Assembly: GCF_004010195.1 (NCBI RefSeq)
Contig: NC_057719.1
Span: 25,196,809 to 25,260,808 of the forward strand
DNA length: 64,000 bases
Source: Chiloscyllium plagiosum
Lineage: Eukaryota
Direction of reading: 5' to 3'
Shown here: piece by piece, positions 7,591 through 63,857 of the stretch
Layout of the letters: each line of letters opens with the position of its first letter
Numbering within the stretch: position 1 is the stretch's first letter
Notes under the pieces: generated by a model
What the model saw: only the letters and a program-made list of their open reading frames with translations
Databases searched by the model: none
What the model was told of the DNA's origin: nothing
Program-made: the position numbers and the translations under genes

Positions 7591-8069
7591 ATCCCATGCA
7601 AGGACTGCACAAAACACTACATAGGACAAACGGGAAGACAGCTAACGATCCGCATCCATGAACACCAACTAGCCACGAAACGACACGACCAGCTATCCTT
7701 AGTGGCCACACACGCAGATGACAAGCAACATGAATTCGATTGGGACAACACTACTATTATAGGACAGGCCAAACAGAGAACAGCCAGGGAATTCCTAGAG
7801 GCATGGCATTCATCCACAGATTCAATCAATAAGCACATCGACCTGGACCCAATATACCGACCACTGCAATGGACAGCTGGAACTGACAGCCGGAAGCGGC
7901 AGATTGAAATCATTATAAATGCCGGGAGAAACATCACAGAAGCGCTTCACAGGAGGCTCCCAAGCACTGAGGATGTCACCTAGACAGGGGACGAAACGTC
8001 TGCAACACAAATTCCCAGCTCGGCGAACAGAACCACAACAATGAGCTACAAATCTTCTCACAAACTTTG
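7591..8069 (+). mobile_element. Penelope-like element 3' fragment with GIY-YIG endonuclease and terminal hammerhead motif
   Basis: Open frame from 7591: IPCKDCTKHYIGQTGRQLTIRIHEH...REFLEAWHS...INKHIDL (GIY-YIG). Perfect 14-bp TSD aactacttgataca at 7577-7590 and 8070-8083. Confidence 0.92.
7964..8003 (+). ncRNA. Minimal type-I hammerhead ribozyme motif in the PLE terminal repeat
   Basis: GCA-CUGAGGA-U-GUC(A)CCU-AGAC-AGG(G)GAC-GAA-ACGU-C-UGC: core intact, helix I GCA/UGC, GUC triplet. Confidence 0.8.
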
Positions 8070-9337: not shown

Positions 9338-9431
9338 GGCTGAAAATGTGTTGCTGGAACAGTGCAGCAGGTCAGGCAGCATCCAGGGAACAGGAGAATC
9401 GACGTTTCGGGCATAAGCCCTTCTTCAGGAC
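9338..9431 (-). mobile_element. Single-arm P1 element with intact hammerhead core
   Basis: - strand reads GUC-CUGAAGA-A-GGGC-UUAU-GCCC-GAA-ACGU-C-GAU. Perfect 13-bp TSD taattctgaacat at 9325-9337 and 9432-9444. Confidence 0.88.
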
Positions 9432-11206: not shown

Positions 11207-11441
11207 AAAAGTGAGTGCTGCAGATGCTGGAAACCAGAGTCTAGGTTAGAGTGGTGCTGGAAAAGCACAGCAGGTCAGGCAGCATCCGCGGAGCAGGAAA
11301 ATAGACGTTTCGGGCAAAAGCCCTTCATCAGGAATGATGGACGTCCATTCCTGATGAAGGACTTTTGTCCAAAACGTCGATTTTCCTGCTCCTCGGATGC
11401 TGCCTGACCTGCTGTACTTTTCCAGCACCACTCTAATCGAG
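11207..11441. mobile_element. Palindromic P1 element with hammerhead cores on both strands
   Basis: Inverted arms meet at tcatcagg...cctgatga. TSD actccg(c/t)gtatac(c/g)atggc at 11188-11206 and 11442-11460. Confidence 0.88.
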
Positions 11442-11476: not shown

Positions 11477-11636
11477 GCGAAAGTGAGGACTGCAGATGCT
11501 AGAGATTAGAGTCAAGAGTGTGGTGCTGGAAAAGCACAGCATGTCGGGCAGCATCCGTGGAGCAGGAGAGTCAATGTTTCAGGCAAAAGTCCTTCACCAG
11601 GAATGATTCCTGATGAATACCTTTTGCCAGAGACAT
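11477..11636. mobile_element. P1 element with short inverted right arm
   Basis: TSD taatccac(t/c)tagcttg at 11461-11476 and 11637-11652. Confidence 0.85.
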
Positions 11637-18229: not shown

Positions 18230-19342
18230 TTGCTACACGATGGCAGGTCAGCTTGGCCTCCACTATTTGGGAAGTTATGTCCCAGACAAATACATCTACA
18301 GGAAATGTCACTGCCTCTAGAAAGTTGAACCCCAGGTGTCAAACTCAATTAGTGTTGGAGTGACTGCTCTGTATCTGGGAAGCAGAAAATTATGGTGGCA
18401 ACATGTTTTAGGAGGTGATTAGCAGTGTACAGGCAAGAGAATGAAAGAGTGCCAAACTGGCAGGCAGCGCAGAAGTCTCCTGAACCACAGTCTCTCCTGG
18501 TTGCTGCTTAGTTTCCATTTTGGACACTGCATGAAGGAAACAGTATCTCGTGGCAGTGCAATAAAGCACCACAGATCATTGAGCTGCACAGGAGGACAGC
18601 AACAAGAGTAGAAGTGCAATACAGATAGGGGATATCATACTCGAGGGATCAGACAGATGCCTCGGCGGCAATAAACATGACGCCAGGGTCAAAGAATGTC
18701 ATGATGTAATTGCCATTACAGAAGTATGGCTAGAGAGTGACCAAGACTCTGAACTGAATATTCTAGGTTTAGGAAGGACCAGTGAAAAGGAAAGATGATG
18801 GTGTTGCACTGATACTGGTGAGGTCAGTGCATTAACAACAGAGGATTTGAGATTCGAAGAACAATGTGTGAAGTCTAGATTCGAGTGGTGCTGGAAAAGC
18901 ACAGCAGGTCAGGCAGCATCCAAGGAACAGGAAAATCGATGTTTTGGGCAAAAGCCCTTCATCAGGAATCCTTTTGCCCGAAACATCAATTTTCCTGCTC
19001 CTCAGATGCTGCCTGACCTGCTATGCTTTTCCAGTACCACTCTAATCTAGACTCTGGTTTCCAGCATCTGCAGTCCTCACTTTTGCCCAATGTGTGAAGT
19101 CTGTTTGGGTAAAATTAAAAACAGCAAGAAGCAGCAAATATTGGTAGTTGTTGTTATGGGCCTGTAAACAGCAATGGTACTAATCAAGAGATCAGAAGCA
19201 TTTAGAGGAGCAGTAATCATAGGTGATAACAATTTGTGCGTAGATTAGGTAAACCCAATGAGCACTGATCCTGTGAAGGATGAGTTTCATAAGTATATTA
19301 TGGATGATTTTCCAGACCAGTAAGTTAATGAACCAACCAGAG
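18230..19342 (+). mobile_element. Old CR1 ORF1/endonuclease remnant (element C, upstream part), interrupted by a P1 insertion
   Basis: Decayed motifs IGDIIL, DVIAITEVWL, SVWVKLKN, VIIGDN, FPDQxVNEPTRE. Confidence 0.7.
18877..19087. mobile_element. Palindromic P1 element
   Basis: Perfect 15-bp TSD caatgtgtgaagtct at 18862-18876 and 19088-19102; inverted arms. Confidence 0.9.
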
Positions 19343-19344
19343 TG

Positions 19345-20265
19345 AGGCTTTAGCTCAGGAGTCTTTGACAAGGAGGTTGAGTGAAGTGATTACGCCACAG
19401 TTGAAGAGGGTGAAGACATGACTGCCAAGCTGGTTCAGTGTGCTACGTGCTTGGTGTGGGAGGTCAATGACTCTGGTGTGTCTGGCTCGTATAAGTGTGG
19501 AAATAGTGTGCACGTTCAACTACTGACAGAGCATATTGCAGCACTGATGAAAGAACTCGAGGACCTTAGGCTCATCCGAGAGAACGAGATCTTTCTGGAC
19601 AAGACCTTCAGCGTACCAGAAGAGAGCAGACGATGAGGAAGGCAGAGAGGAGACAGGTGCAAGAGACCCCAGGGGAAGTACCTGTCAGGAACAAGTTGAA
19701 TCTTTTGGAAACAGTAGAGACAGATGACACTGCCAGTCTGCGAGGTGGCCAGGTCTGTCAATCAAAAGTTGGCAGACAGAGCGGAAGAGTCGAACATCGC
19801 ACAGAGCCGTGGTAATAGGGGACTCCATAGTGAGAGAAACTGACCGGGGTTTTCGTGGCAGCAGACGCGACTTAAGGATGGTGTGTTGCCTTCCTGGTGC
19901 CTGGGTTAAAGACATCACAGACAGAGTGCAGGAAATCCTCAAGGACGAAGGTGAAGAGCCAGAGGTGGTGGGACACGTCGGCACAAATGATGTCGGGAAG
20001 AAGAGGAGGAATATACTACAGCGGGACTTCGGAGAACTAGGAAGAAGGCTGAAAAGCAGGACGTCCAAGGTGGTTATCTCCGGTTTGCTTCCAGTTCCTC
20101 GGGCAGGAGAGGCCAGAAACAGGGAGATAATGGACTTGAACGTGTGGCTGGGGAACTGGTGCAGGAAGCAAGGATTTAAATTCTTGGATCACTGTGGTAT
20201 GTTTTGTGGTAAGCATAAATTCTACAAGACAGACGATCTGTACCTTAATAGGTTAGGGACCAGCA
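19345..20265 (+). mobile_element. CR1 LINE 5' region and ORF1 (Cys motif plus SGNH/GDSL esterase), frameshifted (element A)
   Basis: ORF 19418..19636 MTAKLVQCATCLVWE...YKCG and ORF 19809..20354 VIGDSIVR...VCCLPGA...HVGTND. Confidence 0.9.
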
Positions 20266-22055
20266 TCTGCCTTCCTGTTCTTGCCACCAAAGTGGATAAC
20301 CATACATTTATCCACATTAAACTACATCTGCCATGCATCTGTCCACTCCCCTAACCTGTCCAGGTCACCCTGTAATCTCCTAACATCCTCCTCACATTTC
20401 ACCCTGCCACCCAGCTTAGTATCATCAGCAAATTTGCTAATGTTACTATTAATATCATCTTCTATATCATTAATATATAGTAAAAAGCTGCGGTCCCAGC
20501 ACTGATCCCTGCGGTACCCCACTGGACACCGCTTGTCATTCCGAAAGGGAGCCGTTTATCACTACTCTTTGTTTCCTNNNNNNNNNNNNNNNNNNNNNNN
20601 NNNNNNNNNNNNNNNNNNNNNNNNNNNNNNNNNNNNNNNNNNNNNNNNNNNNNNNNNNNNNNNNNNNNNNNNNNNNNNNNNNNNNNNNNNNNNNNNNNNN
20701 NNNNNNNNNNNNNNNNNNNNNNNNNNNNNNNNNNNNNNNNNNNNNNNNNNNNNNNNNNNNNNNNNNNNNNNNNNNNNNNNNNNNNNNNNNNNNNNNNNNN
20801 NNNNNNNNNNNNNNNNNNNNNNNNNNNNNNNNNNNNNNNNNNNNNNNNNNNNNNNNNNNNNNNNNNNNNNNNNNNNNNNNNNNNNNNNNNNNNNNNNNNN
20901 NNNNNNNNNNNNNNNNNNNNNNNNNNNNNNNNNNNNNNNNNNNNNNNNNNNNNNNNNNNNNNNNNNNNNNNNNNNNNNNNNNNNNNNNNNNNNNNNNNNN
21001 NNNNCAATTCAATTCTTCTGCCATTTCTTTGTTCCCCGTAATATATTCCCCTGTTTCTGTCTTCAAGGGCCCAATTTTAGTCTTAACCATTTTTTTGCCT
21101 TTCACATACCTAAAAGAGCTTTTACTATCCTTCTTTATATTTTTGGCCAGTTTACCTTCGTACCTCATTTTTTCTCTGCGTATTTCCTTTTTAGTAATCC
21201 TCTGTTGTTCTTTAAAAGCTTCCCAGTCCTCCATTTTCCCACTCATCTTTGCTATGTTATACTTTTCTCTTCTAACTTTATATGTTTCTTAACTTCCCTC
21301 TCAGCCACAGCCATCCCTGCCTTCTCATAGGATCTTTCTTCCTTTTTGGAATGAACTGATCCTGCATCTTCTGCATTCTACCCAGAAATATCTGCCATTG
21401 TTCCTCCACTGTCATCCCTGCTAAGGTATTGCACCATTGAACTTTGGCCAGTACCTTCCTCATAGCTCTATAGTTCCCTTTATTCAACTGAAATATTGTC
21501 ACTACCGATTGTACCCTCTCCCCTTCAAATTGCAGACTGAAGCTTATTGTATTATGGTCACTACCTCCTAATGGCTCCTTCACTTCGAGATCCCTGATCA
21601 ATTCTGGTTCGTTGCACAATACCAGATCCAGAATTGCCTTCTCCCTGGTAAGCTCCAGCACCAGTTGTTCTAAGAATCCATCTCTGAGGCACTCCACAAA
21701 GTCTCTTTCTTGAGGTCCAATACCATCCTGATTCTCCCAGTCTATATGCATGTTGAAATCCCCCATAAAATTTGTAGTAAAATCTTTGCGACAGGCCAAT
21801 TTCAGCTCCTTATTCAACTTACACCCTACATCCATACCACTGTTTGGAGGCCTGTAGATAACTCCCAAGAGGGTCTTTCTATCCTTAGAATTTCCCAGCT
21901 CTATCCATACGGACTCTACATCCCCTGATTCTAGGTCCACCCGCCCAAGGGACTGAATATCATCCCTTACCAACAGGGCCACCCCACCCCCTCTGCCCGT
22001 CAGTCTGTCCTTACGATAGCATGTATAGCCTTGAATATTCATTTCCTCAGGCCCT
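20266..22055 (-). mobile_element. CR1 LINE ORF2, APE endonuclease to RT (element A), with internal assembly gap
   Basis: ORF 21278..22042(-) GGGVALLV, GVIYRPP, MGDFN, GSDH; RT motifs PQGSVLGP and SKFADDTKLG near 20400-20530. Confidence 0.93.
20578..21004. other. Assembly gap
   Basis: N run. Confidence 0.99.
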
Positions 22056-22176
22056 GGTCACCCCTCAGCCTCAGCTCCAGGGAAAACCGCCCCAGCCTGT
22101 TCAGCCTCTCCCTGTAGCTCAGATCCTCCAACCCTGGCAACATCCTTGTAAATCTTTTCTGGACCCTTTCAAGTTT
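22056..22176 (-). mobile_element. CR1 fragment (element B, upstream part)
   Basis: [29 protein letters not shown]...RLRGD within ORF 22039..22314(-). Confidence 0.85.
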
Positions 22177-23351
22177 GCTGCTTAAATTTGTGCATGTGGA
22201 TTTATCTCTACCAATGCATGCAAAATTTGCTATAAACTTAGTGAAGGGGGGAACAACGATCACTATCTCCTGTCCGTGCCCACCCCATTGACTGCCTTCC
22301 CTCCCCCTCTCCACTCTTTATCTCCACCCCCTCATTCAATCCAATTCTCTCTCACTTTCTCACACCCCCTACTGAATTCTGTTTCAATAGCGAGCTTCTT
22401 TTATATACGTGCACAGTTTCTTTGCATATGATGTCACTGAATTGCTTCAAGATTACATAGGTTTTCTGGAACTATCCGCATGTATAATTGCAAGGAATAT
22501 TAGTAATCAGCACTCACTGGCTAACTTGGATGTTGCTGTCCTGTGATAAGCTTGTCCTCCTTCTCTCAGGATTTGTTTTTGTCTCTTCCTGGTATCTGCT
22601 TCTAGAAAAATGTTAATAACTTTCTAAAAAGTCAAATTATCCTTTTGTCTGTAATATAACTCCCACGGATTAATCAATAATTCCAATAGCAGTTGGAATT
22701 CTGCTTTCAACATACCATAGTCACAGTTGTCCATGAATCTGTAGATGTTGCTTATGAAATTGCCTATGGATTTTCTTGGATGCAAGTTGTTGTGTTGAAC
22801 CTTGTGAACAAACACATTTTTGAATGAACAAGTTAAAATAATTATCAAAAGCTGTTAGAACTTCAAAAGTATTTGTCCTTTCTTTCTTGTTTTAACAAAT
22901 TTGTGATGTTATTTCTTATAGGTCCTTTGGAATTGCTGAGTTTGAGTTTTAGTTCTGCACGTTAAGAATTGTTTTTCTTGCCTGAGAATTATTTTAAATT
23001 TTAAGTGATAGGATCTTGTATTTCTAGCTTTTAACTTTGCATTAATCCCCTGGCTAGGCGACATCATCAGGCCGATAGGTTGATAGAACCTATCAACAAA
23101 GACGGCATACTTAAACTACTGGACTTGTGCCTCACAACACACTTCACATTCAACAACCAGATATACGAACAAATCAACGGAACACCCATGGGCTCACCGA
23201 TCTCGGGACTCATAGCAGAGGCAGTTATGCAAAGGTTAGAACAAACAGTCCTACCACAAATTCAACCCAAACTCTGGGTCAGATATGTCGATGACACGTT
23301 TGTAATCATTAAAAACACAGAAATAGAGAAAACACACCGGACCATCAACGC

Positions 23352-23468
23352 NNNNNNNNNNNNNNNNNNNNNNNNNNNNNNNNNNNNNNNNNNNNNNNNN
23401 NNNNNNNNNNNNNNNNNNNNNNNNNNNNNNNNNNNNNNNNNNNNNNNNNNNNNNNNNNNNNNNNNNNN
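23352..23468. other. Assembly gap
   Basis: N run. Confidence 0.99.
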
Positions 23469-24040
23469 GCTCGTTGTTGTGGTTCTGTTCGTCGAGTTGG
23501 AGGTTTTTGTTGCAAACGTTTCGTCCCCTGACTAGGCGACATATCAGTGCTTGGGAGCCTCCTTCGAAGCGCTTCTTTGGTGTTTCCTCCGGTGTTTATA
23601 GTGGTCTTTCCCTGCCGCTTCCGGTTGTCAGTTTCAGCTGTCCTCTTTAGTGGTTGGTATATTGGGTCCAGGTCGATGTGTTTGTTGATGGAGTTTGTGG
23701 ATGAATGCCATGCCTCTAGGAATTCCCTGGCTGTTCTCTGTCTGGCTTGCCCTATGATAGTAGTGTTGTCCCAGTCGTATTCATGTTGCTTGTTGTCTGC
23801 GTGTGTGTGAATTTGACTGGGACAACACTACTATCATAGGGCAAGCCAGACAGAGAACAGCCAGGGAATTCCTAGAGGCATGGCATTCATCCACAAACTC
23901 CATCAACAAACACATCGACCTGGACCCAATATACCAACCACTACAGCGGACAGCTGAAACTGACAACCGGAAGCGGCAGGGACAGACCACTATAAACACC
24001 GGAGGAAACATCAAAGAAGCGCTTCGCAGGAGGCTCCCAA

Positions 24041-24080
24041 GCACTGATGATGTCGCCTAGCCAGGGGACGAAACGTTTGC
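24041..24080 (+). ncRNA. Minimal hammerhead ribozyme motif in the PLE terminal repeat
   Basis: GCA-CUGAUGA-U-GUC(G)CCU-AGCC-AGG(G)GAC-GAA-ACGU-U-UGC. Confidence 0.75.
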
Positions 24081-26679
24081 AACAAAAACTTCCAGCTCGG
24101 CGAACAGAACCACAACAACGAGCACCCGAGCTACAAATCTTTTCACAAACTTTGCATTAATGCAATGTTGTTTTGCTCTCTCACTTAGGGAAAACCTTTA
24201 CCTCATAATAGCAAGGCTATTTTATGTTTTTGACTTTGCAAAATAGTACTGTTATGTTTTCCAAAATGCTTTATGTTAATTAATGATGCTGTATTTCTCA
24301 ACTGCTTACTGTGTCTTTCCATCATTTTGTGGGCAGAATTCCAGCCTTCTGCAACCAAAGTGAAGGTTCTCTAAATTTTTTCAGAGGCATAACATCTACA
24401 CTTCATCCACAGCATTTTTGCAAACAAAGTCGTATACCTTAGTGCAATAATTGCAATTAAAATTATTGATCTTCCATTCTTTACAACAATCTTAAAAATC
24501 TTCTCATTATTTTCTTCTGTTGGCCTCTCTCTTCATTATATTTTAAAATTATTTTTATTTTAAATCTTTGTCACATTAAATCTACTTCACAGTGTTCCTC
24601 CGGAACTGAGACCTCAGTATAACTTAAATCAGTGGCCTTTAACTTTGCTATTCTGGCTGTGTGGCAACACATTGTGAATGGGAGGTAATCCTTTCTTAAC
24701 TGCAACATTTTGCAGACTGATTCTTCATACTATTAATTTAAAATTTTCCTTTGCTTTACGAGAATGTTCAACTTTACTCAAGGAGTTCCAGAATAATAGA
24801 TGTCTCCCAGCAGAACCTTGAAACCCTACAGTGTCTTGTTCTACAAAGACACTGTAATTGCCACGTGACTAATTTTCCTTTAAGTTCCTATTAGCACTAA
24901 CTGCTTCTCTTGTGTTTTTTCTTAACCAGGTCTGAAGTGAAAGTTTTAGCTTGGAGTGCTGTTTCTATCTTGTTATTCCTTACTCAAATTTGCTAATTTG
25001 CTTGTTTGTTCAAACAGTTACAAATGGAGACTGGATACTTTTTAAAAGCTGTAGCATTGAAAGCAATAAACTCACGAGTCTTAAAATTTGTTTCTCCCTG
25101 GTCCATTGGACATTTTCCCACAGTTGTTACCTTGTTGTTTGAACAATGATATTCATGTTGTATATGCTGAAAAATTAGCTAATTAAAGTAAAACAGAGAA
25201 TAGAAGCTGAGTTAGACCATTCAGTCCACAAAGCGTTCTCTGTCATTCAAGGTACTCTTAGCTGATCCCTCATCTCAAAGCCTTAGTCCTGCTCTATCTA
25301 TATATCCATTGACATCTTTAGCCTCGAGGAATCTATCTATTTCTTCTAGTAGGTGTTATGCTGTCATCAATCCACCTTTCAAGACTGAGACTAAGGACTT
25401 GTTTTGTTCACATCTGTTGAAGATATGCCACTAGTGAGTCTTAATAAAAATGGATACTTGTCTTAGCAAGACATGGATTATTGGTTGATAGCCATAGATA
25501 TATATGATGTAAACTTAGCTATCTTGTCTAACCAAATCAATCAGGAGACCGTGCTGCTGATTATGTGACATAATCAGATTGGGTAGAACTTAATGCAGTC
25601 TCCAACATTAACCCTTTCAAAATCTTTATCCTATATAATCCCACAACTGCAGCGACTTCGCATTATCTTTTAGAAGAATTCCACAGGTTTGATAATTGAC
25701 CTGATTTAGAATTTTGGAATTCCAGGGATCCTTCTGACCTTTATTCAGAATGTGTGCGCGAGTGGGTGGTGACTGGGTGAGGACAGGTTTATTTGGAGCT
25801 ATGATGCTCAATGTGATTAAAGAAAGCATCAAAATTTCCTATTGAGGCTTCTGTTTGAACAATAGGCACTTGGGCAAAGCACCCTTTGACCTATTGCTCA
25901 CAGAACATATTTCACCAAGGGCTCTCTGAAAGGAAAAAATAAGTGACACAATTACTGAAAAGAGAAGGTTAATAAGATTTTACATGCAGGATCTAAGAAT
26001 AATTTGAAGGAAACATACATCTTAATATTGTCCGTTGCATCTCTTGTGTCTAAGCTGTCAACAGAAGTTTGGAATAATGAAAACATTGGCATCTATGCAT
26101 AATGTTTCTGCATTCTCTTCCCTTCAGGTTGCATACAACAATCGGCTTTAAACTGCAGAACTGGGTTGGCCTTCCTTCCTGGGCTCTAACCAAACATTTG
26201 CATTTACAGCGATGGTCTAGGAATATATTTAGTTGTCTTTCATGTCCACACTTCAAACAGAACCAGTATTCAGAGGATGACTGTGTGAGCAGTCCTTGAG
26301 AATAGTTTTTTTAAAGAAATGCAAGAACAATTGAACTGCATTATCTCTTTGAAATAAACAGCTTTTATTTGCTTGGCTTGTATTTTTCTGTGTTTTTCAC
26401 ACTCTGGAGGTTTGTGCAGTATTCTATGAGAGATGGTATCAAGTAAAACATTTGCAATTCTCTACTCCTTTTGAAGCACGCCTTTACACTTACTGAGCCA
26501 TGACTAAAGCTCTGTCATCTTTGTGACTTAGGTCAAATTTTGTTTGACATTCCCATGAAGGTCCTTGAGATATTGCATGATTCAAGATGTCATATAAATG
26601 CAAGTTGTTATTTCAGTATCTAGTATATGGTCTCCACTGACTGATGTAACTGGATTTTTAGGAAGAAACTGTGCAGTCC

Positions 26680-28158: not shown

Positions 28159-28391
28159 TCAAGATTAGTGGTGCTGGAAAAGCACAACAGGTCAGACAGC
28201 AACCGAGGAGCAGGAAAATCGACATTTTGGACAAAAGTCCTTCATCAGGAATCATCAGGCCTCGTTCCTGATGAAGAGCTTTTGCCAGAAACGTCGATTT
28301 TTCTGCTCCACGAATGCTGCCTGACCTGCTGTGCTTTTCCAGCACCACTAATCTTGACTCTGATCTCCAGCATCTGCAGTCCTCACTTTCG
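28159..28391. mobile_element. Palindromic P1 element
   Basis: TSD cctcttctt(c/t)gcaagc at 28143-28158 and 28392-28407; inverted arms joined at the hammerhead cores. Confidence 0.9.
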
Positions 28392-39869: not shown

Positions 39870-41119
39870 AGGCCATTTCTGTATCTGTATCATCTAATTG
39901 CAACAGGGTCAACTTTGAGATAGTTATTGCATTTTGGCTTGGCGTGTGGGCAGTGAGAGCACATGTTTATCTGGAATCTTTCACAGCCCCTAAATGCCCC
40001 AAAGCACTTAGTAATGGAGTACTTTTGTTCTGGAAAGGTCTCTGGGTGCGTTTCACCAATTTGTTACAGTTCCAGTCAAGACCCTCCCAGTCATTAATCT
40101 TCCAGGTGAGGATGGAAGAACTGGCTGGTCTTCCTTATTCACCCACTCCCTTGGTTGGTCACAACTATTTTAGTTTCGAAAGGATCCCACTCTTACAAAT
40201 ACTTTATTTCAGACCAAATGACTGTAAAAGGAGCTGATTTAACCAGATTATCTGAATTAACAAAAAGGCAAGTTTATTAACTGCAAGCAGAAGTAACATC
40301 TCATGCATTCAGATTGCAAACAAAAAGACATTATTGAAACTCTCACCTGCAGTGCAGGGGTGTTTAATGTCTCTCCAGATTGTGATTATCATTGCATACT
40401 AGTCCATATTCTAGTACATAAGGCACAACATCAGACCAGGGTTTTTAACATTTTTGTTTGTATATCTCTGGAAGGGTAAAACACAAATATGTTACACATG
40501 GCATCCTGTGGATAGGGAGGTGAGTAGTAAGCTGTTCATTTATCTCTTCATTTTTAGTCTTTCTATTTTGAAGTTTTCCTGACTCCATACAAGATTCACA
40601 TTCCATGGTTCTACACAGGACTCTGCCAGTTATTGAATTTATATCCACAGTCATCTTTTGTAAATGCCGCAGTCCCTTTTTAAACAAAAGGATATGTTGG
40701 AATTACAAGTTTGATATGCACATTAGTGCTTTGGGGTTCTGATCATTGCAGTGACAAAGACTACTGGAAAAAATGTTACCTTAGCCAATATTGTTTTCAG
40801 TGGTGTGCTCGTGGTTTCTCTTCCCATTCATCAAACCATTCCAGCATGAAACCCTTCAATCCAAATATGTTACACCCAAGTTGTTTAGATCAGTGCTCTG
40901 TCAGATCATAACTCCTTTATTTCGGAAGGGGTTTTGCTTGTGCTTAGGTGTATTTTACAGTCAAAGCGAATACGGTAAGAACATATTATTTACCCGATAA
41001 CCTTAACTTGTATTTGTATTGTGCCTTTGATGGGACAATGGCTTAGAATCACAAAGGAGTAAGACATAAAGTCTGGACTTTCTTCATAGACTATGTTAAA
41101 GAGGCTATCATATTAGTGT

Positions 41120-41335
41120 TGAAAATGTGTTGCTGGAAAAGCGCAGCAGGTCAGGTAGCATCCAGGGAACAGGAGAATCGACGTTTCGGGCATAAGCCCT
41201 TCTTCAGGAAGTCTGAAGAAGGGCTTATTCCTGAAACGTCGATTCTCCTGTTCCTGGATGCTGCCTGACCTGCTGCGCTTTTCCAGCAACACATTTTCAG
41301 CTCTGATCTCCAGCATCTGCAGACCTCATTTTCTC
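41120..41335. mobile_element. Palindromic P1 element, well preserved; - strand hammerhead core intact (41180-41207)
   Basis: Perfect 15-bp TSD ctatcatattagtgt at 41105-41119 and 41336-41350; arms meet at tcttcaggaagtctgaaga. Confidence 0.92.
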
Positions 41336-42014
41336 CTATCATATTAGTGTAACTTGTTGTGATCATGGAATAATCTACATCTTGTTTAAGAGTCTCATCT
41401 TATCAGGCTACCAAATAGTTTTGCTCTAGCACACTAGACCAAGTGAAGCCCTGTAAATCCCTATTCTGAAAGATGATGGTAGCAGCAAATCTAGCTTACA
41501 CTGGGCAGTAGTACATTGAAAATGATGAACAAGGGTATTGATTGCTCAGTCAATCACTCCCCATTTCTCTCCTTTTCTTGGATGTTCTGTCTTTCTCTGT
41601 GCTTCCATTTGATGACATTACCTGCATTTGGTTTGTGACCTTGCGTGAGTTCTAGCTGAGGCAGACTGGCCAGAGAAGGTGTGCCCTGAGGAGCTGTTAA
41701 TTTTGCAAAGTGACTGTTTGGAGAGGTTGCACTCTGCTGCATATGAATACCACTGGAGTATAAGCCACATATTGGAATTGGGACTGATTGGTCTTAAGGC
41801 ACAAAATTAAAAAGCTTTGATTATAGAGTCCCAATTATTGAATTACTGCAAATGAATTACTTGTTGAGTCGGTTGATTGCAAATGACTCATTGCCATAAA
41901 TGGCTACCTACTACTTAGCAGACAAATCTTTGAGGGAACAATGTTTTGTTAGCAAACCCTTTCAAAATATATTGCTAGCAATTTTGCTACTTTGCAACTG
42001 AATTGTAATAGATC

Positions 42015-42790
42015 ATGGGACCATAGAGAACTTACAGCACAGGGCGGTCATCAAATATCCATTTAGTCTTTTCCTGTTTTCAACATTTGGCCTGTACCAT
42101 AGTATGCTATTGCAATTCAATGGCTTATATAAATAGTTCTTAAGTGTCTGAGGGTTCCTTTCTCCACCATCCTGTAGCAAGTGAATTCCAGATGCAGTAC
42201 CCATAACCTCCAGGATGAAAATTATTTTTCTCAAATCCCCTTTAAATCTCGAGCTCCTTTCCTTAAAACTATCTTCCATGGCTATTAAATCCCCTACGAA
42301 GGATAACAGTTTCTCCCTATTTACCTTGTCTGTATTCAGAACTTTGTGCACCTCAATCAAGTCTTTTCTCCGCCTTCTTTGCTCTAAGGAAAACAATCCT
42401 AGCCTATCTAGTCTCTCTTCAAAGCTGTAACACTCCAGCCCAGGCAATATCTGGTGAATCTCTTCTGCACTCTCTTTAGTTCAATCACGTATTTTCAATA
42501 GCATGGCCAGTAGAACTGTACACATTGCTTTAGCTATGGCCTAACTAACATTACATTCACCTCCATCATACCCACCTTGCTATTTTATTCAGCGCTTGAC
42601 TAATAAAGGCAAGTAATCCATATGCCTACTTAACCATCTTGTCTACCTCTCCTGCTGCCTTCAAGGGTCTATGGACATGCAAACTATGGTCATTGTGATC
42701 TTCTGTACTTCTAGTGTCTTGCCATTCAATATAAACTCCCTTGCTTCATTAGTCATTCCAAAATGCACTACTTCACATTCTTACGGGACT
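42015..42790 (-). mobile_element. CR1 LINE 3' fragment
   Basis: ORF 42013..42447(-) PGLECYSFEERLDRLGLFSLEQRR..DLIEV. Confidence 0.85.
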
Positions 42791-51079: not shown

Positions 51080-51820
51080 TATAGTTAGTAAGTTTGCAGA
51101 TGGCACCAAAATTGGAGGTGTAGTGGACAGTGAAGAAGGTTACCTCAGATTACAATGCATTTTGGAAAGGCAAATCAGGACAGGACTTATACACTTAATG
51201 GTCAGGTCCTGTGGAGTGTTGCTGAACAAAGAGACCTTGGAATGCAGGTTTTTAGTTCCTTGAAAGTGGAGTCGCAGGTAGATAGGATAGTGAAGAAGGC
51301 ATTTACTGTGGTTTTCTTTATTGTTCAGACATGTTGGAAGGACATGTTATGGCTGTACAGGACATTTGTTAGGCCAGTTTTTGGAATATTGTGTGCTATT
51401 CAGGTCTCCCAGAAGGATGTTGCGAAACTTGAAAGGGTTCACAAAAGATTTACATGGATGTTGCCAGGCTTGAAGATGAATAGGCTGGGGCAGTTTTCTC
51501 TGGAGCATCGGATGCTGAGGAATGACCTAATAGAGATTTATAAAATCATAAGGGGCATGGATAGGGTTAGTAGACAAGGTCTTTTCCCCAGGGTGGGGAA
51601 GTTCAGAACTAGAGGACATAGGTTTAGGGTGAAGGGGAAAATTTTAAAAGGGGCCTAAGGGGTAACTTTTTCATGCAGAGGGTGGTGCCATTATGGAATG
51701 AGGCTGGTACAATTACAACATTTAAAAGACATCTGGATAGGTTCATGAATAGAGGGATATGGGCCAAGTGCTGCCAAATGGGACTAGATTAATTCCGTGG
51801 TGTACACCTTTGTGACTCTA
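51080..51820 (+). mobile_element. CR1 LINE 3' fragment with internal deletions
   Basis: ORF 51155..51658 MHFGKANQDRTYTLNG...EQRDLG...KLERVHKRFT. Confidence 0.88.
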
Positions 51821-51851: not shown

Positions 51852-52040
51852 TTTGGAGATGCCGGTGTTGGACTGGAGTGTACAAAGTTAAAGATCACAC
51901 AACAGCAAGTTATGGTCCAACAGGTTTATTTAGAGACACTAACTTTCGGAGTGCTGCTCCTCGTCAGGTGATTGTCACAACCACCTGATGCAGGAGCAGC
52001 GATCCGAAAGCTAGTGCTTCCAAATAAACCTGTTGGACTG
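51852..52040. mobile_element. Palindromic PLE-derived element, family P3, hammerhead motifs on both strands
   Basis: gtccaacaggtttatt ... aataaacctgttggac inverted arms. - strand 51937-51970: CAC-CUGACGA-GGAG-CAGCA-CUCC-GAA-AGUU-A-GUG. + strand 51982-52016: CAC-CUGAUGC-A-GGAGC-AGC-GAUCC-GAA-AGCU-A-GUG. Confidence 0.82.
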
Positions 52041-59604: not shown

Positions 59605-60078
59605 GTGGAGAAAGTGAGAACTGCAGATGCTGGCAATCAGAGTCGAGAGTGGGTTGCTGGAAAAGTACGGCAGGTCAGGCAGCATCTAAGGAGCTGGCTC
59701 TTGCCTAAAATCAACATTTTAGGCAAGAGCCCTTCATCAGGAATGAGGCTTGTGAGCCAAGGGACCCCCCTCCCCCTTGACTCTCTAGCCTCATCCCTGA
59801 TGAAGGGCTTTTGCCCGAAACGTTAGTTCTCCTGCTCCTCGGATGCTGCCTGAGTGGGTTGCTGGAAAAGTACGGCAGGTCAGGCAGCATCTAAGGAGCT
59901 GGCTCTTGCCTAAAATCAACATTTTAGGCAAGAGCCCTTCATCCGGAATGAAGCTTGTGAGCCAAGGGACCCCCCTCCCCCTTGACTCTCTAGCCTCATC
60001 CCTGATGAAGGGCTTTTACCCGAAACGTTAGTTCTCCTGCTCCTCGGATGCTGCCTGACCTGTGCTTTTCCAGTACAC
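59605..60078. mobile_element. P1 element with internal 205-bp tandem duplication
   Basis: Units 59647-59851 and 59852-60056 differ at 3 positions; 9-bp TSD cactttaac at 59596-59604 and 60079-60087. Confidence 0.9.
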
Positions 60079-62845: not shown

Positions 62846-63152
62846 AGATTAGATTAGATTACTTACAGTGTGGAAACAGGCCCTTCGGCCCAACCAGTCC
62901 ATACCGACCCGCCGAAGCGCAACCCACCCATACCCCTACATTTACCCCTTTAACCTAACACTATGGGCAATTTAGCATGGCCAATTCACCTGACCCGCAC
63001 ATCTTTGGACTGTGGGAGGAAACCGGAGCACCCGGAGGAAACCCACGCAGACACGGGGAGAATGTGCAAACTCCACACAGTCAGTCGCCTGAGTCGGGAA
63101 TTGAACCCGGGTCTCGGGCGCTGTGAGGCAGCAGTGCTAACCACTGTGCCAC
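62846..63152 (-). mobile_element. Near full-length HE1/V-SINE
   Basis: As 36190-36522. Confidence 0.9.
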
Positions 63153-63154
63153 TA

Positions 63155-63283
63155 CTAAATTGCCTGTAGTGTTAGGTAAGGGGCAAAATGTAGGGGTAGG
63201 GGTGGGTTTCGCTTCGGCGGGTTGGTGTGGACTTGTTGGGCCGAAGGGCCTGTTTCCACACTGTAATCTAATCTAATCTAAAA
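63155..63283 (+). mobile_element. HE1/V-SINE 3' part in opposite orientation
   Basis: ctaaattgcctgtagtgttagg...ccacactgtaatctaatctaatcta. Confidence 0.88.
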
Positions 63284-63649
63284 AAGGTTGCTGCCCTTGA
63301 TCTTTGAATTCCTTCCAGACTCTCATCCTGTCCTATCTCACTGCATACATGTCCTCCTTGTCTGGATTCTGAGTGTTTAAACTATTAAATCCTTATACTG
63401 GATGGACAATCTCCTCTGATGGTATTGCAAGAAGAACAACGGTGTTTACCCAAATATCCTGACCAGCATTTAGCCCTCAGTCAAACACGCAAAACAAATT
63501 ATCTGCTGCAAAATCCTTCCTTTTTCTGTATGTTTATCCCTTAAATCAAGAGGCTGTTTGAGTCCATGCACCTTGTCTTAATCTTAGAATTTAAAGTATA
63601 ATTCTAGATTTACTGCATATATTATGTAGAAGGTGAATCAACTGTAGAG

Positions 63650-63857
63650 AGTGCTGGAGAAACTCAGCAGCTCTATCAGCATCTGTGGAAATAGAGTTAA
63701 TGATTCAAGACGATGACCTTACCTCAGAACAAGTTCATACTGGACTCAAAACGTTAATTCCATTTCTCTCCCCACAGATGCTGACAGACCTACTGCGTTT
63801 CTCCAATAATCTCCACGTTTGTTTCAGATTTCCAGCATCCGTAGCATTTTGCTTTTA
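63650..63857. mobile_element. Degenerate palindromic P2 element
   Basis: gctggagaaactcagcag...agcatctgtgg versus cagatgctgacagacc...gtttctcca...ccagcatccgtag. Confidence 0.65.

Follow-up and report, generated by a model that had tools for sequence, protein, structure and literature searches.

The palindrome at 41120–41335 of the analysed window (64 000 nucleotides of the 3.56-Gb genome of Chiloscyllium plagiosum, contig NC_057719.1) and its relatives, here called P1, are probably minimal insertions of a Neptune-type Penelope-like element (PLE), likely made anew at each site by twin priming on the 5' end of a capped RNA and likely immobile afterwards. P1 palindromes are real and of an ordinary kind, but they are informative about mechanism; each is likely a dead-end by-product that records the insertion process and not an independent jumping unit. 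The features of the window are reported in table 1.

Table 1. Hammerhead-bearing insertions of the window and components of the focal palindrome. Element positions are numbered with the C of CUGA as +1.
Feature	Position	Strand	Remarks
Left TSD, 15 bp	41105–41119	+	exact repeat of 41336–41350
Short arm	41120–41210	−	element positions −3 to about +88, starting at the proximal RT start site
Minimal hammerhead core of short arm (putative)	41180–41207	−	CUGAAGA, 4-bp stem II, GAAAC–GUC; predicted cut after +28
Head-to-head joint	41211–41212		two bases matching neither arm
Long arm	41213–41337	+	+1 to +123/+125, starting at the distal RT start site; final two bases overlap the TSD
Minimal hammerhead core of long arm (putative)	41213–41240	+	without the 5' strand of stem I
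Tail, 36 nt	41300–41335	+	on one arm only
Right TSD	41336–41350	+	repeat of 41105–41119
Older palindrome	11207–11441		tailed arm at left; GGAC stem of right arm is a rare double substitution; TSD of 19 bp with mismatches (22 counting the overlap into the arm)
Older copy	11477–11636		tailed arm and decayed stub of second arm; 16-bp TSD
Older palindrome	18877–19087		15-bp TSD; tailed arm starts at +12, without CUGA
Older palindrome	28159–28391		16-bp TSD
Older palindrome	59605–60078		205-bp internal direct duplication repeats the joint; 9-bp TSD
Single short arm	9338–9431	−	−2 to +89; 13-bp TSD
P3 palindrome	51852–52040		second, unrelated hammerhead-bearing family; same long/short design

The focal copy is a 216-base palindrome in which a short arm (to +88) stands head-to-head with a tailed arm (to +125). 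It folds into a single hairpin (z = −22; 0 of 200 shuffles equally good), and in the predicted transcript fold both hammerhead cores would be buried. The core of the short arm was numbered with a descriptor from PMC4209133. The sequence elements of a minimal hammerhead (CUGANGA, stem II, GAAA and a palindromic stem III remnant) can all be recognized in this putative ribozyme; the Rfam search of the copies gave no hammerhead match and, for the window copies, microRNA hits that were all sub-threshold. It had been proposed that either strand carries a core. This is true of the focal copy, with CUGANGA and GAAA intact on both strands, but not of the other window copies: the plus arm of the 18877 copy starts at +12, and each of the remaining ones has a mutated CUGA or GAAA in at least one arm. 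Genome-wide, one arm of the two commonest joints begins at +3 or +6, without CUGA. The back-to-back hammerheads look incidental, the ribozyme adjoining the putative RNA start. No empty site for the focal copy was found among the joints listed from four contig sets of patchy coverage.

The palindromes of the original prediction were borne out by the sequence at the coordinates it gave, together with the pairing of one long and one short arm and the TSD lengths of the P1 copies. A TSD was sought for the P3 copy and not found. The coding PLE copies, to which the TSDs had been likened, do carry 14-bp TSDs (one at the coding P2 copy at 23033; a 14-bp repeat also flanks the P2 copy at 7707–8065), but these two copies belong to a family other than P1; the P1 arm gives no match to them. 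The P2 coding PLE at 23033–24161 consists of a 25-nt inverted hammerhead stub, an RT fragment, an N gap and an inverted repeat of 330 bp per arm, with the 14-bp TSD. The direct duplication of 205 bp inside one palindrome lies at 59650–60058, and its repeated joint is unusual. The P3 family has 12 further matches in the loci examined, two of them at one place; the arms of its palindromes end near +118 and at +80 to +86.

A sequence pattern for the head-to-head joint of the young subfamily has 5332 + 5201 matches genome-wide (control, 0), and an older subfamily has 3869. The young pattern requires the joint to lie inside the hammerhead. The 100 matches listed correspond to 69 loci (hand count), which gives about 7000 young loci in the genome. 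Independently of any pattern, 60 unselected 10-kb stretches (569 kb without N) contain 17 palindromes, or about 30 per Mb; by rough extrapolation from these stretches, P1 palindromes number about 1 × 10^5 in the genome. About 20 Mb of the genome (again a rough extrapolation) could be wrongly annotated as MITEs or microRNA hairpins. Ends were analysed in loci 1–61 of this list of 69, which had been chosen by the joint alone and all lie within the first 20 Mb of one contig. At two loci (L126 and L018), young copies sit in older copies of the same element end.

A TSD was detected in 54 of the 61 young loci and in none of 61 controls with mismatched flanks. Its median length is 15 bp (24 of 15 bp, 17 of 14 bp), and it measures 13–16 bp in 50 of the 54. 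Seven loci gave no TSD in the scripted search: three lie at N gaps, two have undergone rearrangement, in one the script missed a TSD that is visible by eye, and the remaining one has two tails and no TSD. Exactly one arm is tailed in all 54 TSD-bearing loci (p = 3 × 10^−15 against independent 50:50 choice, calculated on 53 of them). Of 53 short-arm ends analysed, 48 fall between +78 and +100, mostly at +88 to +92, and the pairing of a long with a short arm recurs in 16 of 17 palindromes from 600 kb of unselected DNA. The short-arm starts have a mean microhomology of 1.44 nt versus about 0.7, and no clear base preference was seen at the target sites apart from A+T richness.

Short size, abundance and long inverted repeats are also features of MITEs, but an origin from a DNA transposon is extremely improbable and was rejected: symmetric termini and a short fixed TSD were not found, the ends being asymmetric and the TSD 13–16 bp long in 50 of 54 loci, single arms also have TSDs, and the parent encodes RT and GIY-YIG. 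The earlier suggestion that these copies look like MITEs and are in fact retro-products is supported by the TSD of about 15 bp, the asymmetric ends and the existence of a coding PLE with the same end.

The arm ends of the palindromes match the two RT start sites determined in vitro in PMC11167929. According to that work, the PLE protein Poseidon from Anolis cuts and extends both strands, and two internal starts bracket the tail; the distal start lies 111–118 nt after the beginning of stem II, corresponding to about +119 to +126 here. Ribozyme cutting is dispensable in that system, uncut RNA serving as template. No difference in start site between the strands was seen there, and no homology at the start; the microhomology at the short-arm starts in our loci, and the strand-specific start sites of our best explanation, are at odds with these observations.

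The original prediction had called for a search for an autonomous PLE ending in the P1 arm, and a coding PLE with this end was found. A gap-free copy (L267) has 754 open codons with RT, a CX4CxxC finger and GIY-YIG with CCHH, and runs into a young arm. In two other loci (L173 and L002) Pfam recognizes RVT_1 (E = 5.9 × 10^−8) and GIY-YIG (E = 3.8 × 10^−5). The parent thus has the RT followed by a C-terminal GIY-YIG in a single ORF, as expected of an EN+ PLE, and the CX2-5CxxC finger between RT and EN is present as CX4CxxC in L002 and L267. Judged from its deduced protein, the parent is of the Neptune/Nematis type as defined, with EN+ PLEs, in PMC8557442; it is called ‘Neptune-type’ because of this motif and because, among vertebrates, the clade that has it is Neptune.

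Element sequence is present upstream of the arm in 11 loci taken from the best 30 long-arm matches. At two source-like loci (L257 and L258) the element continues beyond +125, with an ATG at about +162, and both arm ends are therefore internal to the RNA. No full-length tandem copy (pLTR–ORF–pLTR) was recovered among these loci, many of which are interrupted by N gaps. Positions 2400–3500 of L258 contain a tandem array of a protein-less unit of about 360 bp, composed of the upstream region, the hammerhead and sequence past +125; a 13-bp repeat is visible by eye at its ends. The array resembles a retrozyme and is derived from the element, and it is a candidate for a source locus. Four TSD-flanked chimeras (L021, L028, L161 and L172) consist of an inverted short arm, an internal RT fragment and a long arm from −4/−9 or +32; in all of them the switch falls within one and the same part of the RT frame, about 150 nt long, although two had been chosen by an RT query.

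In unselected DNA, 5' ends lie at −6 to −1 in 28 of 78 arms and 11 arms extend past −30, a distribution in which long copies are under-counted, arms at N gaps having been dropped, and in which lenient alignment shifts some ends to −11 to −20. Genome-wide, 6402 matches begin at A(−4), within an initiator-like motif. Some older copies extend to −8 to −12 before the joint. Among the 100 matches listed, the base before A(−4), read by eye, is G in 62, A in 23 and T in 15 (26 per cent G expected, p = 4.5 × 10^−14), although not all of these rows are independent and some G at −5 can be read as a partner-arm or target base; a script applied to the first 30 listed rows counted 20 G, 6 A and 4 T. Three single arms consist of a full 12–14-bp TSD, one G and the arm, and no single arm among the rows analysed has another base at this place. 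One base upstream, as a control, G is not clearly in excess: 23 of 65 bases are G by eye among the non-element rows listed (29 per cent expected), 12 of them in one microhomology joint.

An extra G marks the capped 5' ends in L1 insertions (PMC11702581), and from its presence before −4 we infer a capped element RNA starting at A(−4), adjoining the hammerhead. In one single-cell run, 2431 RNA reads showed no concentrated molecule start, a second run gave 0 reads, and dispersed copies swamp the signal. A splice acceptor at −4 was considered and rejected, as the parent lacks an AG at this position and the bases before it differ from locus to locus. In Drosophila, an intron ends at helix I, as reported in PMC4209133. 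A stall of RT at the hammerhead, or a cut of the RNA at that place, is a rather unlikely cause of the arm ends near −4. The stop does adjoin the 5' edge of the ribozyme, and an early tally, in which 9 of 78 ends fell between +25 and +36, hinted at a second peak at the cut site, but later tallies did not confirm it: they gave ends spread over +15 to +36, with 3 of 30 at +29 and hence no pile-up where the ribozyme is predicted to cut. Moreover, RT would have passed every paired segment of the ribozyme before it reached −4, and a stall leaves the extra G unexplained. The lack of a pile-up is in line with the use of uncut RNA as template in vitro (PMC11167929). We retain the start of a capped RNA as the probable cause of the stop.

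The two arms of a palindrome nearly always represent one variant. At a diagnostic site with a 50:50 distribution, 43 of 45 pairs have the same base in both arms, where independence would give 22.9, and at a second site agreement is again 43 of 45 (31.9 expected). Rare variants are common to both arms 15 times in the young set, compared with a permutation mean of 0.63, and 10 times in 23 older copies, compared with 1.76. Both arms therefore nearly always come from one source. The stem difference cited in the original prediction (GGGC versus GGAC, or GTCC on the other strand, at 11.3 kb) does not mark a subfamily: genome-wide, GGAC/GGAC has 0 matches, the mixed combination 10 and GGGC/GGGC 3869. 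Since GGAC never occurs in both arms and is found in one arm of 10 matches only, there is no GGAC subfamily, and the right arm of the 11207 copy carries a rare double substitution.

Priming at both nicks fits the data, whereas priming of each strand on a separate RNA cannot be upheld as a rule. Each nick could still use its own RNA molecule, usually from the same source locus and perhaps held by a dimeric hammerhead; we regard this as possible and clearly less probable than a shared molecule. One palindrome with a TSD (L201; 1 of the 23 older copies) combines two known older haplotypes that differ at five or more linked sites, and two RNAs are thus used occasionally; the young set has four single-site mismatches at diagnostic sites, and minimal hammerheads are thought to act as dimers (PMC4209133). 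Against separate RNAs stand the shared rare variants, the loss of the GGAC example and the constancy of the tail: with two equivalent RNAs there is no obvious reason why all 54 loci should have a single tailed arm. Agreement of the arms could also have arisen by later conversion, or because a single source supplied both RNAs. Of the three arrangements that we considered, namely one RNA copy, two repeats on the same RNA and a pair of RNAs from the same locus, we prefer one RNA molecule per insertion.

The joints are heterogeneous, 70 being distinct among 107 examined. The two commonest (13 and 12 of 107) have a 3-nt microhomology, and many have short inserts resembling neighbouring element sequence. 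Joints with such microhomologies and inserts are the pattern of polymerase-theta end joining. The arm that reaches further in the 5' direction is the tail-less one in 15 of 54 loci and the tailed one in 16, both being equal in 23. In one locus (L183) an identical internal duplication of 17 nt is present in both arms.

These data bear on a proposal made for rotifer PLEs (PMC3846280), in which the inverted arm is formed no later than the insertion itself, through self-priming or fold-back of an antisense RNA or of the first cDNA. The near-identity of the arms agrees with such a process, as do some joints that are perfect palindromes at self-complementary 2–4-mers, yet we consider it improbable. 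Fold-back of the first cDNA fails because the loop stays on the first-made arm and no tail can be added: in 15 of 54 loci the tail-less arm has bases that the tailed arm lacks, and the tail cannot be copied from a tail-less arm. Self-priming fits poorly for the same reasons. In addition, many joints have inserts, L201 has two templates, and both ends match RT starts observed in vitro. Twin priming followed by end joining is our preferred reading of the joints.

Copying of a palindrome as a unit should leave a shared joint and haplotype at new sites, and none was seen for the focal joint or for 107 local joints. Genome-wide there are two instances of the focal joint, and they differ in haplotype and in TSD. 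A self-propagating non-autonomous family, retro-MITE or retrozyme-like, whose whole units are copied by the PLE enzyme, might be expected from the density of about 30 palindromes per Mb and from the frequent recurrence of a few joints; it is nevertheless quite unlikely. The recurrent joints are the microhomology ones. In nine loci, the bases past +125 match the continuation of the parent at 18 of 20 positions (CpG decay allowed), as expected for tandem-copy sources and not for stubs. RNA needs about 55–60 nt past the distal start in vitro (PMC11167929), which the stubs do not have, and both cores would be buried in the hairpin. The term ‘non-autonomous elements’ of the original prediction is therefore not supported: the joints are mostly locus-specific and those examined bear no trace of unit copying. 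Nor were the head-to-tail hammerhead repeats of non-LTR retrozymes found, all palindromes being head-to-head and only L258 tandem.

The favoured mechanism, insertion anew at each site, may be described as follows. Tandem source copies would be transcribed from A(−4), directly 5' of the hammerhead. A protein dimer would cut the target with a stagger, giving 14–15-nt 3' overhangs; one end would prime at the distal internal site (+125) and the other at the proximal one (+89), which would produce the one-sided tail. On the 5' repeat copy, RT would have 95–130 nt to copy and would run off at the cap, often adding a base that is read as the extra G. The two cDNA ends would then be joined by microhomology-mediated end joining and filled in. 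Loss of one cDNA would leave a single arm, and RT starting on the downstream repeat would yield the familiar long copy with an inverted end.

A broader reading, which we put forward tentatively and at slightly less than even chances, is that PLEs insert with a fixed geometry, of which the stubs have preserved a fossil record. A protein dimer bound to a single capped RNA would have two start sites, 35 nt apart, and would offer one of them to each strand of a 14–15-nt staggered cut. The pLTR inversion and one-sided tail of all EN+ PLEs would result from this obligatory twin priming with end joining, and the palindromes would be its ‘strong-stop’ products. The extra G would allow the promoter to be mapped without recourse to RNA, and no fewer than two unrelated families here would obey the rule.

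The inverted end placed head-to-head, the tail at one end, the TSD and the Neptune-type protein with CX2-5CxxC and CCHH are shared by P1 and the EN+ PLE insertion units of PMC3846280 and PMC8557442, which have a tail of 30–40 bp; inverted pLTR, one-end tail and TSD are all present in the P1 palindromes. The differences are that the whole P1 insertion consists of two ends (about 215 bp), present in about 1 × 10^5 copies by extrapolation, and that its joints favour end joining and not self-priming. With Poseidon from Anolis (PMC11167929), P1 would share the cutting and extension of both strands, the two internal starts bracketing the tail and independence from ribozyme cutting. That element belongs to another clade, and the study contains no paired ends per event, inverted copies or RNA-start map.

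In L1 twin priming, as described in PMC11702581, a second nick likewise primes a second cDNA, the TSD is discrete, the joints have microhomology and an extra G occurs at capped ends; however, the L1 cDNAs copy different parts of the RNA, with a poly(A) end, whereas the P1 cDNAs would both start at fixed internal sites and copy the same part of the RNA, so that a palindrome results. The non-LTR retrozymes of 10.64898/2026.07.22.740005 are also protein-less, hammerhead-bearing and derived from PLE ends, but are arranged head-to-tail and thought to be mobile via circular RNA, whereas P1 copies have a head-to-head arrangement and stop at −4 instead of at the ribozyme cut site. The core, short stem II and palindromic stem III remnant are as in the minimal hammerheads of metazoan PLEs (PMC4209133), with the difference that those of P1 are predicted ones and that the palindrome transcript would bury both cores. 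Related literature includes PMC8969392, and an internal promoter is known in Drosophila Penelope (PMC2377424).

The general shape (inverted end, one-sided tail, TSD) and the two start sites are already published. In the main texts of openly available papers we found no description of minimal PLE palindromes, of a strict long/short pairing per event or of a PLE cap trace. The origin of the inverted ends and one-sided tails of PLEs is called unresolved in PMC8557442 and PMC11167929. Thousands of young minimal copies allow both ends of single events to be read jointly, and the stubs give three testable rules: each insertion has one tail, its joint is made by end joining, and RT runs off where the capped RNA begins, next to the ribozyme.

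Outside P1, the window has inverted repeats at 62863–63266 and 63634–63826 (arms of 90 and 62 nt). Decayed LINE-like reading frames, presumably CR1/L2-like, occur at 19728–22057, 42013–42480 and 51134–51658.
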